From: a virus
UHGV virus genome: UHGV-0139945
Length of the DNA stretch: 26,445 bases
Strand: one strand, 5' to 3'
A model generated the notes under the pieces. That model ran no database searches. It was not told where the DNA came from and saw only the letters and a program-made list of their open reading frames with translations. This document shows positions 8,661-23,695 of the stretch, piece after piece; the first letter of the stretch is position 1; the number at the start of each line of letters is the position of its first letter. A program made the translations under genes and the position numbers.

Positions 8661-9380
8661 TTAATCACACTTTTCCGTCCTGAAGTCTTCTATTTCCTCA
8701 TGAAGCTTATATATGCATTGCAACGCGCTGCTATCCATATCGATGAAAGCCATCTTTAACCGTTCCCAATGGCCTGCATACACCCTTTTCCAAGTGGACC
8801 GCTCAACTGAAACCAAACGCGCCAGTGCGGCACCCGCGTAGGCTTTATAGGTCTCATTATTGCGGGTAGCCGCAACTTCTTGTGCCGCCAGCCAGACCAG
8901 CCCTACCAGCTTTTTAATCACTCGCGATTGTAGCGGCTTGCTTATTTGGTAGTTCTGGTATTCAGTCCAGACGTGCTGGCACATTAATGTTTGATAATGG
9001 AAGTTTAGATCGAAGCCATAGCAATAGCGCACCCACGCTTGCTGGTAGGCTTCCAGTTGATTCACTGCACGGCGCCACGGCGAATAACCGAACTCAATAT
9101 CGTTAATGGGTGGCATTGGTCGGCGGCGGCTTCGGGTCTCCATCACATAAACTGGAGTAGTCAGTGCCTTAACCACCGACGGGCCACAACCAATTCCCCC
9201 ATCCAGATCGACAAAATGGCGAGAGTACCGCGGATTTTTATTCTTATCTGCTGGTGGGTTCTCGCTGAATGCCTCGAGTTGTCCCTTTGTTGTGCCGGAT
9301 AGATCCAACAACGCTCGACGAACTTCAATACGGGTATATTCCAGATTTTGTAGGTTCATACTGCTCAGTGCTCCATACAC
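8661..9380 (-). CDS. Putative late-gene antiterminator Q (QuuQ / Q82-family-like), 239 aa
   Basis: Positional call: last gene before the terminator and late operon, and immediately downstream of a DUF968-like gene as in E. coli Qin ydfU-quuQ (recollection). ORF-track start is GTG at 9380; ATG at 9359 (MNLQNLEY...) is an alternative. Confidence 0.5.
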   Translation of the reverse strand: MYGALSSMNLQNLEYTRIEVRRALLDLSGTTKGQLEAFSENPPADKNKNPRYSRHFVDLDGGIGCGPSVVKALTTPVYVMETRSRRRPMPPINDIEFGYSPWRRAVNQLEAYQQAWVRYCYGFDLNFHYQTLMCQHVWTEYQNYQISKPLQSRVIKKLVGLVWLAAQEVAATRNNETYKAYAGAALARLVSVERSTWKRVYAGHWERLKMAFIDMDSSALQCIYKLHEEIEDFRTEKCD

Positions 9381-16090: not shown

Positions 16091-16300
16091 TCAAACTTTT
16101 TGTTCTTTAAGCTTGCTATACAGCTCCGGTTGGAAAACAAGTTTCCCATCGGTGCGGTACGCAGCTTCAGCAGCCCTCCCTTTTGGGATCAAGCGACCGG
16201 GTCTGTTCCGCCACTGATAAACAGCTTCGCTGGATATGCCAAAGAACTCGGCTACCTTCTCAGCGTTTCCAAAGTACTTTTCAACTTCATCGGTGGTCAT
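16091..16300 (-). CDS. Cro / YdaS-like HTH regulator, 69 aa
   Basis: Pattern AEKVAEFFGISSEAVYQWRNRPGRLIPKGRAAEAAYRTDGKL matches YdaS/Cro-like HTH proteins (recollection); strong RBS AAAGGAG; divergent from the repressor gene. Confidence 0.7.
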   Translation of the reverse strand: MTTDEVEKYFGNAEKVAEFFGISSEAVYQWRNRPGRLIPKGRAAEAAYRTDGKLVFQPELYSKLKEQKV

Positions 16301-16400: not shown

Positions 16401-17027
16401 ATGGAAACTGTCGGACAACGAATAAAATCGCTTAGGCGAATCACCAGAACCTCACAAAAAGAGCTTGGGAAGTTTTGTGGGGTCAGTGATGTCGCAGTTG
16501 GGTATTGGGAAAAGGATGTAAACGTCCCAGGAGGGGAGTCTCTTTCCAAACTAGCAAAATTCTTCAATACATCAATTGATTACATACTTTTTGGCACTGA
16601 GTTTGAGGGAAACTTAATAACTAAGATGCGAAAAGTTCCCGTGATATCGTGGGTGCAGGCAGGATTATTCACAGAATCAAAGCCTGAAGATGTCTTGCAT
16701 AATGCCGAAAAATGGGTGGAAACGTCTCTCCGCATCAGCGATAACTCGTTTGCCCTTGAAGTAAAGGGAGACTCAATGACAAATCCTAATGGACTGCCCA
16801 CGATTCCTGAGGGCGCAACGGTCATCGTTGATCCAGACATTGAGCCAATTCATGGAAAGATTGTAGTTGCACGAATAGATGGGACCAACGAGGCCACGGT
16901 CAAAAAACTGGTTGTAGACGGTCCGCAAAAATTTCTTGTCCCGCTAAATCCCCGTTATCCGAACATCGCCATCAATGGTAACTGCGTCATTATTGGTGTG
17001 GTTAAAGGCGTTCAATACGAGCTCTGA
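16401..17027 (+). CDS. CI-type prophage repressor (HTH_XRE + S24 LexA-like peptidase), 208 aa
   Basis: N-terminal HTH (QKELGKFCGVSDVAVGYWEKDVNVPGGESLSKLAKFF) and C-terminal S24 domain with GDSM serine and a downstream lysine (TVKKL). Confidence 0.9.
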   Translation: METVGQRIKSLRRITRTSQKELGKFCGVSDVAVGYWEKDVNVPGGESLSKLAKFFNTSIDYILFGTEFEGNLITKMRKVPVISWVQAGLFTESKPEDVLHNAEKWVETSLRISDNSFALEVKGDSMTNPNGLPTIPEGATVIVDPDIEPIHGKIVVARIDGTNEATVKKLVVDGPQKFLVPLNPRYPNIAINGNCVIIGVVKGVQYEL

Positions 17028-17079
17028 TCTAAGCTAATCTACCTTCGACACCAAGCTAAGAAAAGTTTGGTGTTTTTCC

Positions 17080-17108
17080 TTGACGATAAAACTAAGTTAA
17101 GTTAGATT
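17080..17108 (+). promoter_or_regulatory. pL-like early promoter overlapped by an operator
   Basis: -35 TTGACG (17080-17085), 17-bp spacer, -10 TAGATT (17103-17108); operator-like CTAAGTTAAGTTAG (17092-17105) overlaps spacer and -10. Confidence 0.45.
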
Positions 17109-18088
17109 TTCATCTATCAACAGCGAACAGGCAGGACGCCCACGAAGTAGCCGCCGGTGGCGTATGAATGACCGGATGATTCGCTGACAGATGTCTTCGG
17201 GAGGGGTAACAGAGAAGCGGTTTGATTACCCGCAACTCGTAGTCAAATTCCTATAGCTGGTGGCGATACCCAAGCCAGGAATACCGAAAACCAGCAGGAG
17301 TGTTAAGGATAAGGGCTAATCACTCCCTTAGCACCCCGCCCGAAGATATCTGAAGAACATGGCGAAAGCCTACAGCGTTGAAGGCGATTTTCTCGGTTTG
17401 CGCGCTAAACAATAGCGGGGGTGAAACCGGGGCGGAGAAGCAGAATCCGCGATGTCGGGACTTGATACTTCCGGCCATACCAACAAGCCGAATGATCGCG
17501 TAACGGTCCTTTGCATCTGCCCCGGCGAGGTGGCGCCGCCGGACCGGGGTAGATGAATCGAACACAACATGAAAGCGCATTCCATCTTCATCCGTCGTGG
17601 GGACTGGTTTGTAACTGTAGGGGTGCGCTTCCAGTTGTGAGCGGCAATATTCACAACCGTTGTATGGCACATGCAGCGTTAGCAGCCCGGATGGTTCCCT
17701 TGAAGTTCCATGCGCTATCCGGATAACTGGAATGTGCAAGCCAGGTGTTTCAGGCACGACGTGCGCCCCACCAGCGCGGCGAAAAGGTGTGACGCCCGGG
17801 AATAGTCCGGGACACAACGATGAGGGCATTGACGAGCAAGGCACAGAGTCTGGTTCGATTCCAGACGCCAGGATAGTTCTATATCTGGTGATGGGCAGGG
17901 AAAAGGTCCGTTCGATTCGGACACCGGCAGTGCTCTCTTCGTTGTGGTAATTGCGGCTATGCGCACGTGACGAGCCAAACCCGTTCAATGAATGCGTTTC
18001 CGGGCAGTGTACGTCGTCGGTTATGGCTTAACCCGGCAGGTGGAGGCACCACCGCCACAACCTAGTTAACTGTGCTGTGTGTAGTCTT

Positions 18089-18158
18089 GGCGGTTATCCA
18101 GTTTTCCACTATCCAAAGGAGGAAGAGGATAACGTTCTGATGGATAACCGCCCTTTTT
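18089..18158 (+). terminator. Large hairpin with T-tract (terminator-like) upstream of the early-left operon
   Basis: Perfect 12-bp inverted repeat GGCGGTTATCCA (18089-18100) / TGGATAACCGCC (18141-18152) followed by CTTTTT; about 40-nt loop with nested TATCC...GGATA pairing. Confidence 0.4.
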
Positions 18159-18297
18159 ACACAATACACAAGAGCATCACCGGGCGACGGGCTCATTACC
18201 CAATCCACCCGGGCGGCTTCTCAACCGCAGGTGCTCTTCTGTGTTGTGTACGGAGAAATTCCCGGCGGTGGCAGCCGCCTTTCGAGAGGGTAAAACC

Positions 18298-18669
18298 ATG
18301 AGTAATGATCGCATGACAGTCGTGCCCGATTTCCTGGGCGAACTGGACGCCGGCGTATTCATGAACAAGATTGCGGCGGCTCTTAATACCACCGCGCTCG
18401 GCGTTCTGAACAACGGCAACAAAGGCAAGGTAGTCCTTACCTTTGATTTTGAGCGAATGGGCAACTCTGTTGAAGAGAAGCGCGTCAAGATTAAGCACAA
18501 GCTGAACTACAGCACCCCAACGCCCCGCGGCAAAGCGTCGGAAGAGGACACCACCGAAACACCAATGTGGGTTAACAAAGGCGGCAAGCTCACTATCCTG
18601 CAGGAGGATCAGGGGCAACTCTTCGGTATCACCGGTACGGTGGACGGAAAGCTTAAAGCGGCTCAGTGA
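18298..18669 (+). CDS. Hypothetical early protein (YfdP-like by size and position), 123 aa
   Basis: ATG at 18298 preceded by GAGAGGG; first gene of a YfdP/YfdQ/YfdR-like trio (recollection of E. coli CPS-53). Confidence 0.55.
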   Translation: MSNDRMTVVPDFLGELDAGVFMNKIAAALNTTALGVLNNGNKGKVVLTFDFERMGNSVEEKRVKIKHKLNYSTPTPRGKASEEDTTETPMWVNKGGKLTILQEDQGQLFGITGTVDGKLKAAQ

Positions 18670-18725: not shown

Positions 18726-19553
18726 ATGTCTCAGTTAGACAGCGGTACTTTTCAGCAGGTTAAAGACCTGGTGCTTTCCGGTTATCACCTGAACGATATC
18801 CACGGCCTGGCCTGCCCGACTGCCCTGCTACCTCAGAATACCAGCGTTGAAAGTCTGGAGCGTTATTCTCTTGAGCGCTTCCGTTTCCGCGGCGCCATGG
18901 ACACAACCAGCATTGACGATTTCGTTCGCTATTCTGTCGCTTACGCCCAGGAAGAAGAAAAAGCCCGCTGCTTTATTGATGCCGATAACATGCTGGCGCG
19001 CTCTATCTTCAATATCGGCACGCTGGATAACCCAGGTCATGCTGACAACGTCGCCTCGATCAAGCTCAAGAAGACCGCCCCATTCCGCGCGTTACTGGCG
19101 ACCAACGGCGATCAACTTAATCAGAAGCAAATCGCTGAGTGGCTCGAAGACTGGAGCGACTATCTGCTGGCCTTTGATGCTAGCGGGAACACGATGACGA
19201 TCGCCCAGGCAGCGCAGGCTGTTCGCCGCGTCACTATTCAACAGGCAACCCAAGCCGATCATGAAGATAGCGACTTTAGCGGCAAAAAATCTCTGATGCA
19301 AAGTATCGAAGCCAGCAGCAAGGAGGTTATGCCGGTGGCGTTCGAGTTTAAATGCGTACCGTATGAAGGTCTTGGCGAACGTCGTTTCAGTCTGCGCAAC
19401 AGCCTGCTGAAAAGTAGCGACCCGATATTTGTTCTGCGCATTGTCCAGTTGGAGGCGCAGGAGGAAGCGATCGCCAATGAGTTCCGTGACCTGCTTGTTG
19501 GCAAGTTCGACGGCAAACCAGTGGATACCTTTATCGGCAACTTCAAAGCCTGA
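18726..19553 (+). CDS. YfdQ-like protein (DUF2303-type), 275 aa
   Basis: 275-aa ORF with AAGGAA RBS; size and neighbourhood match E. coli YfdQ (274 aa, recollection). Confidence 0.6.
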   Translation: MSQLDSGTFQQVKDLVLSGYHLNDIHGLACPTALLPQNTSVESLERYSLERFRFRGAMDTTSIDDFVRYSVAYAQEEEKARCFIDADNMLARSIFNIGTLDNPGHADNVASIKLKKTAPFRALLATNGDQLNQKQIAEWLEDWSDYLLAFDASGNTMTIAQAAQAVRRVTIQQATQADHEDSDFSGKKSLMQSIEASSKEVMPVAFEFKCVPYEGLGERRFSLRNSLLKSSDPIFVLRIVQLEAQEEAIANEFRDLLVGKFDGKPVDTFIGNFKA

Positions 19554-22311: not shown

Positions 22312-22511
22312 GCCTCGATTGTGTTCCCATCTCAACTTATTGCAAAGAGACTGGCGAAACCCCTGATGCCATAAATAAGCGCATCCAGCGCGGCGTATGG
22401 CGTGAAGGGGTACAGGTGCTAAAGGTCGAAGGCGTTAAGGAAAGATGGATAGATCTTAGTGAGGTTGCAAAATGGGCTCGACAAAATCGCCTAAACTCCC
22501 GCGCGGCGTAA
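22293..22511 (+). CDS. Excisionase (Xis-like DNA-binding protein), 72 aa
   Basis: Small basic protein just upstream of int and overlapping it by 40 nt; winged-helix-like DAINKRIQRGVWREGVQVLKVEGVKERWIDLSEVAKW; ATG at 22305 is an alternative start. Confidence 0.65.
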   Translation: MEKSMLSLDCVPISTYCKETGETPDAINKRIQRGVWREGVQVLKVEGVKERWIDLSEVAKWARQNRLNSRAA

Positions 22512-23638
22512 CCATCAGGAAACATAGCAACGGAGAAACTATCAATATTACTTTTACATATAAGGGAGTTAAGTGCCGTGAACCCCTTTCTAATCTGGAA
22601 GTTTCTTCGAAAAACATTAAATATGCTGAGCGAACACTCGGAGAAATTCATAACAAAATCGAAAGAGGAACGTTTGTTTATGCAGAATACTTCCCCCGTT
22701 CTACCCGGTTAAAAATCTTTGGGAATGCTGCCTCCGGCAAAACGGTGAAAATGTATCTAGATGAATATCTTGTGATTTGCGAAACGAGGAAGTTATCCCC
22801 TTCAACGATCGGCGGCTACAAAAAATGCCGTAGCGCATTGTCATCGCTTCACGTTTTTCCCGCAAGTGAGTTAACGCCGGCTGCATTGAAGGCATGGATC
22901 CAAGATCAGAAAACGACCTTGAAGACCATCCGAAACCAACTTTCTTTCCTGCGCTCTGCAATGGATGAAGCGGTAACAGATGGTATTCTCCAGATTAACC
23001 CTGTTTCACTAGTAACAGCCTCACGTTACCAGAGTGACAAATCAGTGTCAGAAAGTAGTTATGTGGTTGACCCGCTATCACCAGCCGAAGTACATGCTTT
23101 GCTCACAGCTGCTGGCAATAAACAATGGGAGAACCTCTTTCGATTCGCCATCCAAACTGGCCTGCGTAGTTCTGAGCTGTGTGCTCTTCGTTGGCGTGAT
23201 ATCGATTTTGTAGGGAAGACAGCCCACGTTCAGAATGCCACCGTAGTTGGCGTAATCAAAGGGACCAAAACAAAAGCTGGAACACGGAAGGTTGAACTAA
23301 CTGACGAAGCAATGCTTGCGTTAGTTAGTCAGAAACCGTTCACTTTTATGAAAGATGATACGATCTTCGAAGATCCAAAAAGTAATAAAGCATGGGCAAG
23401 TGCTGATGCAATAAGAAAAAAAGCGTGGGTACCAACCTTACGAAAGGCAGGCATCCGCTATCGTAATCCATACCAAACCCGGCACACTTTTGCTACCCGT
23501 CACATTAGCCAAGGTGCCAATCTTTTTTGGTTAGCCACACAAATGGGGCATAAAGGACCAGAGATGCTTTTCCGTCACTACGGCTCATATCTGAAGGAAT
23601 ATGATGGACAAACAAGCCTGAAGAAGATAACAATATAA
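22472..23638 (+). CDS. int: Tyrosine recombinase / phage integrase (lambda Int-like), 388 aa
   Basis: Arm-binding-like N-terminus and C-terminal catalytic residues (TRHTFATRH, LATQMGHKGPEMLFRHYGSY); GC falls sharply immediately downstream. Confidence 0.9.
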   Translation: MGSTKSPKLPRGVTIRKHSNGETINITFTYKGVKCREPLSNLEVSSKNIKYAERTLGEIHNKIERGTFVYAEYFPRSTRLKIFGNAASGKTVKMYLDEYLVICETRKLSPSTIGGYKKCRSALSSLHVFPASELTPAALKAWIQDQKTTLKTIRNQLSFLRSAMDEAVTDGILQINPVSLVTASRYQSDKSVSESSYVVDPLSPAEVHALLTAAGNKQWENLFRFAIQTGLRSSELCALRWRDIDFVGKTAHVQNATVVGVIKGTKTKAGTRKVELTDEAMLALVSQKPFTFMKDDTIFEDPKSNKAWASADAIRKKAWVPTLRKAGIRYRNPYQTRHTFATRHISQGANLFWLATQMGHKGPEMLFRHYGSYLKEYDGQTSLKKITI

Positions 23639-23695
23639 TCCATGTCTGAACTATTGGCCACAATTTGTGGCCATTTCATGGAACAAGGTACAAAC

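Follow-up and report, generated by a model that had tools for sequence, protein, structure and literature searches.

A conserved terminator-like hairpin and a structured leader RNA upstream of the early-left genes of an N-less lambdoid prophage

How transcription passes the terminators in the early operons of N-less phages of the ST64B, SfV, mEp460 and LLS type is an acknowledged gap (PMC12315714). The virus genome UHGV-0139945, analysed here as a single stretch of 26,445 nucleotides (nt; the window), raises this question at one short locus. Just upstream of its first early-left gene is an inverted repeat followed by a T-tract, overlapped by an open frame of 53 codons. A preliminary description, made from the sequence alone, suggested that this could be a leader-peptide or attenuator device, or a small arginine-rich antiterminator resembling N. 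Is the locus a small gene, a terminator, or both? The outcome of our analysis is that the small gene is false and can be removed, that what we read as a conserved terminator is placed between the promoter pL and the first early gene, and that two RNA elements supported by covariation are defined, neither of which matches Rfam. We consider it probable that the hairpin and T-tract form a conserved Rho-independent terminator inside a structured, untranslated leader of about 1.2 kb, belonging to a pL operon under repressor control.

The hairpin and its conservation

Direct reading of the sequence finds a perfect 12-bp inverted repeat, GGCGGTTATCCA at 18089–18100 and TGGATAACCGCC at 18141–18152, separated by a loop of 40 nt. 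Directly 3′ of the stem on the + strand is a C followed by TTTTT (18153–18158); on the − strand the stem has no T-tract after it. No other perfect 12-bp inverted repeat whose loop is at most 60 nt exists in the 26.4 kb of the window. Shuffling the window 200 times with dinucleotides preserved yielded on average 0.115 repeats of this kind per window, and a 12-bp repeat with a T-tract arose in 1 of the 200 shuffles. The fold of 18080–18165 has an energy of −31.8 kcal/mol (z = −4.85), and none of 200 shuffles was equally stable. The inverted repeat and T-tract at 18089–18158, as first described, are thus confirmed by sequence, shuffles and folding. The consensus terminator scan missed this hairpin because it accepts loops of at most 8 nt.

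The hairpin is conserved in related phages. A run of 4–7 T is present in 123 of 126 related loci, its end lying in every case 27 nt before the core of the RNA structure described below, and the terminator T's (T94–T98 of the alignment) are nearly invariant columns. The stems occur in at least 10 distinct compensating sequences among the 126 loci, with pairing kept. Besides the GGCGGTTATCCA/TGGATAACCGCC type of the window, they include GGCGGTACCAG/CTGGTACCGCC, GTCGGCGTC/GACGCCGAC, GCGGCATC/GATGCCGC, GGGGCGGTAACA/TGTTACCGCCC, TGCCCATC/GGTGGGCA and CTGGCGG/CCGCCAG. The support for the stem comes from a per-locus stem table and from the fold of a subfamily of nine sequences, loop lengths being too variable for a clean column alignment.

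This subfamily is distinguished by its long loop, and consists of the window, ST64B and prophages of Citrobacter, Mixta, Erwinia and Phytobacter; the short-loop relatives have loops of 5–18 nt. Within it, 7 of the 12 basal stem pairs show double changes and the sequence of the internal loop is conserved (Table 1). The loop also contains the GGAGG-rich sequence AAAGGAGGAAGAGGA (18115–18129), which had been taken for a Shine-Dalgarno sequence. In all nine members, the GGAGG run is the purine strand of an internal helix, pairing with a YCUUC or UUUUC run on the 5′ side of the loop, and would therefore appear to be structural. Variation in this helix is on one side only.

The 5′ flank of the hairpin is a conserved single-stranded segment whose alignment consensus, TGCTGTGTGTAGTCTT, is retained in most lineages. 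It is possible that it serves as the body or seed of a small RNA (sRNA).

The hairpin has the GC-rich stem and U-tract of an intrinsic terminator, with 12 bp, GGCGG/CCGCC at the base, and then C and T5. We read it as a conserved intrinsic (Rho-independent) terminator, at which transcription would stop. The earlier suggestion of a terminator-like hairpin ahead of the early operon is strengthened by the covariation of the stem, by the near invariance of the T-tract, and by the position between the cI/pL-like promoter and the first gene.

The 53-codon frame and the RNA beneath it

The 53-codon frame is present, and its TGA (18299–18301) does overlap the ATG of the next gene (18298–18300), giving the ATGA at 18298–18301 of the preliminary description; its own start codon, which had been placed at 18141, is one position earlier. 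The frame lies within a longer frame of 74 residues that opens with GTG (18077–18301). Some features favour translation: besides the open frame and the overlap with the next gene, there is a GAGGA 10 nt upstream of the ATG, and 8 of the 53 residues are arginine. However, the ATG lies inside the 12-bp GC-rich stem, and the GGAGG is itself base-paired.

The homologous frame was followed in 104 distinct relatives, anchored on an invariant core. The ATG is restricted to the close lineage of the window (loci L003, L057 and L156). Other relatives have CTACCTCGG, CTGCCGTGG or CTGGTACCG at its position, and species representatives of other genera have CTACCTCGG, CTGCCGTGG and similar sequences. About 10 relatives have a TGA inside the frame, at GGGTGACGG, and others end early; in the ST64B-type sequences the frame lacks a start and is interrupted by a stop. 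The region under the frame is 98–125 nt long, and its length is congruent modulo 3 with that of the window in 8 of 54 distinct sequences, leaving the frame broken in 46. The three codon positions have even shares of variable columns (15/33, 17/32 and 14/33 for positions 1, 2 and 3). The 53-codon peptide matches no Pfam or PHROG family.

Of what a leader peptide should show, neither start codon nor ribosome binding site nor reading frame is conserved. For a protein of the lambda N type there is neither a family match nor a conserved frame, and no boxA or boxB could be recognised by eye. The preliminary description had named a lack of conservation of the small frame in related phages as the outcome that would speak against it, and this is what was found. 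That the ATG in the 3′ arm starts a leader peptide, an attenuator or an arginine-rich N-like protein, with translation coupled to that of the next gene, is barely credible. The frame is, as far as these comparisons can tell, a non-coding by-product, and the conservation beneath it is there because of RNA base pairing.

The RNA in question is a three-way junction with an invariant core (Table 1). In an alignment of 54 distinct copies (A2), 97.6% of the cells are paired, compared with 40–55% when the partners are slid, and nine pairs show two-sided changes; a further alignment, A3, mixes both strands and was kept out of the pair counts. The covariation score is 0.209, against 0.118 for shuffled alignments, and none of 500 shuffles scored as high. 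Helix P4 is variable and frequently carries an inserted hairpin. The minimum free energy (MFE) fold of the window agrees with the structure. A covariance model, R1, finds one strong copy in the window, scoring 111 bits on the + strand and 44 bits on the − strand, and the same asymmetry of about 111 to 44 bits is found in every other locus. Together with the frequent G-U pairs, this asymmetry indicates an RNA on the + strand, transcribed in the early-left direction. The junction RNA matches no Rfam family, either at gathering scores over the whole window or at E ≤ 10 over the leader.

Searched for by sequence, the core GACGGGCTCATNACCCAATCC is present in more than 120 IMG/VR contigs and in 26 species-representative genomes, mostly of Enterobacterales. 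The genera include Escherichia, Shigella, Klebsiella, Citrobacter, Enterobacter, Kosakonia, Leclercia, Raoultella, Phytobacter, Mixta, Erwinia and Pantoea, among others. The 21-nt core was also seen in contigs labelled Chryseobacterium, Prosthecobacter and Acidobacteriaceae (L138, L142 and L143). L138 carries a full leader of Enterobacterales type, and is probably a case of contamination or mis-binning; L142 has the core alone, and L143 has a weak R1 match (34 bits) with a different stem. At L136 (Mixta tenebrionis, about 1500–1700) the junction RNA comes right after a promoter-like TTGATT...TATAGT with no terminator between, and the terminator is absent from L058 and L082 as well. In the record of mEp460 (L005, 2434–2577, − strand) the gene gp36, annotated as a hypothetical protein, covers in antisense the terminator hairpin together with the first part of the junction RNA. 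Hypothetical-protein annotations over this region occur in several phage records and are probably spurious calls.

Between the junction and the first gene lie two smaller conserved features. The GGAGAAAY box has no start codon at ribosome-binding distance. A pseudoknot between the loop AAUCCA and this GGAG box was considered by eye, and was dropped for want of covariation. We also note that the box (GGAGAAAC in the window and relatives) resembles the Shine-Dalgarno region of ftsZ, GGAGAGAAAC, and that it is partly complementary to the pyrimidine runs GUUUUCC and GUUUCUCUCC of terminator loops. The second feature is a small hairpin whose stem varies among relatives while the loop keeps (T/G)GCAG, as in CGACC-TTGCAG-GGTCG, GCGCC-GGTGCAG-AGGCG and GGCGGCC-CGTGCAGGT-GGCCGCC. 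Reading GCUCUU and this hairpin as a boxA/boxB pair is unsupported, as N is missing and the spacing is wrong for such a pair. The YfdP-like gene that follows is homologous to sb37, to SfV orf32 and to LLS gene 39; other relatives have a different first gene after the same leader.

Table 1. Features of the leader and its surroundings, in window coordinates
Feature	Position	Strand	Remarks
Q antiterminator	8661–9380	−	
Cro-like gene, divergent	16091–16300	−	P22_Cro
cI/LexA-like repressor	16401–17027	+	Pfam HTH_3 and Peptidase_S24; homologous to cI of ST64B, SfV and LLS
Terminator-like hairpin closing the repressor transcript	17047–17074	+	Terminator scan: 11-pair stem, then TTTTCC
pL-like sigma-70 promoter	17080–17108	+	TTGACG-17 nt-TAGATT; 9/12 consensus matches; start site putative
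Structured 5′ leader module	17122–17185	+	Outer helix 17122–17127/17180–17185; hairpin 17154–17158/17171–17175
Long-stem domain (module X)	17941–18061	+	GTTGTGG...CCACAAC; directly upstream of the terminator
Conserved single-stranded 5′ flank of the hairpin	18071–18088	+	TGTGCTGTGTGTAGTCTT; alignment
Extended intrinsic-terminator hairpin (as read here)	18089–18158	+	12-bp basal stem, internal helix, conserved GATAAYGTTCT internal loop, C-T5
53-codon frame, judged not a gene	18140–18301	+	ATG 18140–18142; TGA 18299–18301
Conserved three-way-junction RNA	18158–18250	+	Invariant core GACGGGCTCATWACCCAATCC; covariation, covariance model R1, MFE fold
Helix P1	18158–18178/18230–18250		19 pairs, 5 with compensatory changes
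Helix P2	18180–18184/18208–18212		5 pairs, 2 with compensatory changes
Helix P3	18189–18191/18199–18201		3 pairs, 0 compensatory (invariant)
Helix P4	18213–18216/18225–18228		4 pairs, 2 with compensatory changes
Conserved GGAGAAAY box	18252–18259	+	Alignments; just 3′ of P1
Small hairpin before the ribosome binding site	18264–18279	+	GGCGG-TGGCAG-CCGCC; MFE prediction, relatives
First early-left gene, YfdP-like	18298–18669	+	Shine-Dalgarno GAGG 18286–18289; phrog_204, E = 1.6e-41
YfdQ/DUF2303 gene	18726–19553	+	Family match
Integrase	22472–23638	+	

The leader and its prophage setting

The window belongs with the N-less lambdoid prophages of the ST64B/SfV/LLS type. In addition to the genes of Table 1, the − strand carries a Rha/ANT antirepressor, a replication gene, methylases and terminase, and the early-left genes of the + strand include a YfdR-like gene after YfdQ. 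Between the pL-like promoter and the YfdP-like gene is about 1.2 kb without a credible gene. A 222-residue open frame on the − strand of this leader (17320–17988) has no family match. An operator-like sequence, AACTAAGTTAAGTTAGATTTT, lies at the pL position, where LLS and other relatives have it too. Among database records, the nearest are Klebsiella phage Kp4866-6, ST64B, phiNP, SfV, mEp460, LLS and several Stx2 phages. In all of them cI comes first and yfdP/yfdQ last, with a long leader between in which few genes or none are annotated; the leader has no annotated coding sequence (CDS) in ST64B, phiNP and LLS, and one small hypothetical frame in SfV. In CPS-53 of E. coli K-12 the leader is lost. 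Family searches found no N-type protein among the early genes of the window. SfII, SfIV and SfV have been reported to lack N (PMC3851460), and so has LLS, for which a put RNA has only been guessed at (PMC12315714). ARAGORN found neither tRNA nor tmRNA in the window. Rfam gave nothing at gathering scores over the whole window, and at E ≤ 10 over the leader it gave chance-level matches and a weak match to DicF.

The second conserved RNA element, of about 64 nt, comes right after pL. Conservation of this 5′ module extends to 53 distinct relatives, whose operator sequences are of several unrelated kinds. In its alignment 96.1% of the cells are paired, compared with 21–46% for slid controls, and two-sided changes are seen in four pairs; the hairpin and the outer helix covary, and the unpaired stretches are near-invariant. 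Its covariance model, R2, gives 101 bits, with a single copy in the window. No Rfam family matches it. BLAST matches were obtained in phages of Pectobacterium, Pantoea, Yersinia, Aeromonas and Providencia (T5-like), and both this module and the junction RNA occur in prophages of many Enterobacterales genera, Stx2 phages included. The module is absent from LLS and mEp460 in the stretches examined. Between the 5′ module and the junction RNA lie 346 to 1801 nt, depending on the locus, so that the leader is a mosaic of RNA modules.

One further module, module X, is homologous at both ends to ST64B and SfV. Long-stem domains bounded by CACAAC...GTTGTG form a chain in the middle of the leader (17559–18061), at 17559–17633, 17813–17946 and 17941–18061. 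The second of these encloses two hairpins resembling a tRNA T-arm (GTTCGATTC), at 17853–17861 and 17910–17918, and a weak R1 match (16 bits) lies at 17561–17648. In SPN9TCW a tRNA-Arg is annotated over the homologue of 17664–17948, where the window itself has no tRNA by ARAGORN or Rfam, and L098 has an Rfam tRNA match with a 64-nt insert at the corresponding place. LLS (L157) has two terminator-like hairpins between pL and yfdP, at about 2702–2744 and 2980–3008, each followed by a long-stem domain; its junction RNA is at 3008–3130 (102 bits).

Comparison with known systems shows that the leader is a variant of the DicF-locus or lambda N-leader type. The dicF locus of Qin, a cryptic prophage of E. 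coli K-12, also has a GC-rich hairpin with five U inside an operon, in an untranslated part controlled by a DicA/cI-like repressor. There, too, a long stem, of 21 bp, encloses a branched domain right after the terminator and is followed by the ribosome binding site of dicB. The window thus has the repressor-controlled prophage operon and the following long stem of RNase III type that mark a DicF locus, in structure and position only. The base of the stem, UUGGCGG...CCGCCCUUUUU, is common to DicF and the window hairpin. The loops differ, with 40 nt and an internal helix in the window and 11 nt in DicF, as do the enclosed domains, the one in Qin being STnc100-like and the one in the window the P2–P4 core, and R1 does not find the junction RNA in Qin. 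At Qin dicF, termination yields the 53-nt DicF and RNase III cleavage of the read-through RNA yields a form of 72 nt (PMC9438474, PMC5069750).

The STnc100/PasD RNAs (RF02076) likewise consist of a long-stem domain and then a terminator. The homologues of window 17941–18158 in SfV and ST64B score 39.5 and 35.1 bits to STnc100, and the stretch just downstream of dicF in Qin, to which module X is homologous as well, 34.4 bits. None of these reaches the gathering score of 47, and in the window itself STnc100 has no match at E ≤ 10. Unlike the hairpin of the window, the STnc100/PasD RNAs are encoded in the late region, close to the Q antiterminator. They are prophage sRNAs associated with Hfq, and those of PasD have been confirmed on Northern blots (bioRxiv 10.64898/2026.05.13.724894).

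The leader also shares features with that of lambda. The lambda pL leader comprises nutL, an RNase III-sensitive hairpin and the ribosome binding site of N. Both leaders are long, structured and untranslated, and in each a long helix near the ribosome binding site is accompanied by a small hairpin whose loop is conserved. In contrast to lambda, the window has no N gene and no recognisable boxA or boxB, and its leader carries a terminator and is built of shuffled RNA modules.

Proposed mechanism and alternative explanations

From the structures, their covariation, strand and position, and the non-coding nature of the frame, we infer a course of events in which termination, its leakiness, the release of an sRNA and processing by RNase III are the proposed steps. 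When the repressor is lost, transcription from pL would traverse the leader. A fraction of the transcripts would stop at the T-tract, and the product would be a leader-derived sRNA with a GC-rich 3′ hairpin and a U-tail, as at the dicF terminator of Qin. Such a hairpin and tail are the usual 3′ module of sRNAs of the Hfq type. The remaining transcripts would read through, the terminator presumably being only partly efficient. The read-through RNA would fold at once into the three-way junction, whose basal helix of about 20 bp is probably a site for RNase III-type processing, or for control of the 5′ untranslated region, in the mRNA of the first gene; cleavage there would be expected on the pattern of Qin. 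The small hairpin would follow, and then the real ribosome binding site. In support of partial termination, LLS grows lytically on K-12 with two terminator-like hairpins before yfdP, so that the terminator must be passable.

Several observations weigh against this proposal. In consensus scans an intrinsic terminator has a compact loop of 3–8 nt, and the branched loop of 40 nt with its internal helix is atypical; the U-tract consists of five U only. In 3 of the 126 loci the junction RNA stands without a preceding terminator, so that the two elements are separable. The Rfam DicF model (RF00039) gives the window hairpin 16.5 bits against a gathering score of 48, and misses the counterparts of this hairpin in relatives, the DicF-looking L069 and L125 being unmatched at E ≤ 10. 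Finally, the junction RNA has an invariant single-stranded core. This suggests a specific partner, whether a protein, RNA polymerase or a ligand, and a plain RNase III site needs none.

The main live alternative is RNA-based processive antitermination, in which the 5′ module or the junction RNA modifies RNA polymerase in the manner of the put RNAs of HK022. Polymerase would then pass this terminator and later ones, and the hairpin would be the terminator that the system is made to overcome; this view overlaps with the proposed mechanism and is compatible with it. HK022 is likewise an N-less lambdoid phage with a conserved structured RNA of about 65 nt right after pL. In the window the 5′ module occupies the place of putL, with its covarying helices, its near-invariant unpaired stretches and its occurrence under several operators. 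The lack of N in the window and in SfII, SfIV and SfV, and the two hairpins that LLS must pass before its first gene, point in the same direction. But the resemblance to putL was judged by eye only. Neither R1 nor R2 matches the pL/pR region of HK022, which holds putL and putR, and each finds a single copy in the window, in the pL leader, and none in the pR operon. The 5′ module is missing from some relatives, among them LLS and mEp460 in the stretches examined. The junction RNA lies downstream of the terminator and so cannot act on it, and leaky termination as at dicF would suffice. On this evidence antitermination is possible although, on balance, unlikely.

A wider version of the same idea, which we regard as distinctly unlikely, is that the leader RNAs (the 5′ module, the terminator, and the junction with its GACGGGCUCAUAACCCAAUCC core) form a protein-independent control of the early-left operon, in which the junction, the 5′ module or both would bind RNA polymerase or another conserved host factor and set both read-through and processing. 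Were this true, it would constitute a second class of put-like RNA, unrelated to the first, and would explain how LLS, SfV and ST64B do without N. If instead the elements only mark the 3′ end of an sRNA and an RNase III site, as in the terminator mechanism that we favour, the DicF paradigm would be extended from a cryptic prophage to live phages. The candidates are easily mutated in tractable phages, namely LLS on K-12 and ST64B in Salmonella.

It is improbable that the hairpin is a true DicF orthologue, whose loop would pair with the ribosome binding site of ftsZ and block division of the host after induction. DicF is the sole Rfam family that touches the hairpin, at an E-value of 1.6 over 1.4 kb or 0.32 over 281 nt. 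It shares UUGGCGGU.AUC.AGUUUU..AC and CCGCCCUUUUU with the hairpin and occupies the same place in a repressor-controlled operon, and the loop of L026, GUUUCUCUCC, is exactly complementary to GGAGAGAAAC of ftsZ. Yet the score is far below the gathering score, where real dicF gives 76.7 bits, and the relatives that look most like DicF are unmatched at E ≤ 10. The duplex of the window RNA with the initiation region of E. coli ftsZ has an energy of −21.4 kcal/mol and is worse than shuffles (z = +2.0), compared with −37.6 kcal/mol and z = −2.1 for real DicF. The pyrimidine run of the window is moreover sequestered by the GGAGG strand. Membership of the DicF family was rejected on these grounds: the sub-threshold score, the unmatched relatives and the absence of any special complementarity to ftsZ.

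A DNA-level element, such as a cruciform, a protein-binding palindrome, or a recombination or packaging site, is very improbable: the inverted repeat is perfect and the boundaries of the leader modules are recombination joints between phages, but the conserved helices contain many G-U pairs, which the opposite strand would turn into A-C, the strand asymmetry of R1 holds in every locus, the T-tract is conserved on one side only, and the orientation to pL and to the downstream gene is constant.

Two minor observations concern other parts of these genomes. In ST64B (L001, 745–946, − strand) there are Rfam matches to the C4 antisense RNA (79.7 bits) and isrK (64.3 bits), and a weak one to c4-a1b1. 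All three lie inside the annotated CDS sb41, in the early-right operon, which suggests a P1-type c4/ant immunity unit and makes the CDS annotation doubtful. In the window, past the integrase (23642–26390), there is a pair of genes for an AAA_15/AAA_21 ATPase, of AbiEii/OLD-like type, and a D12 adenine methyltransferase, which may be a defence system or cargo at the end of the prophage.

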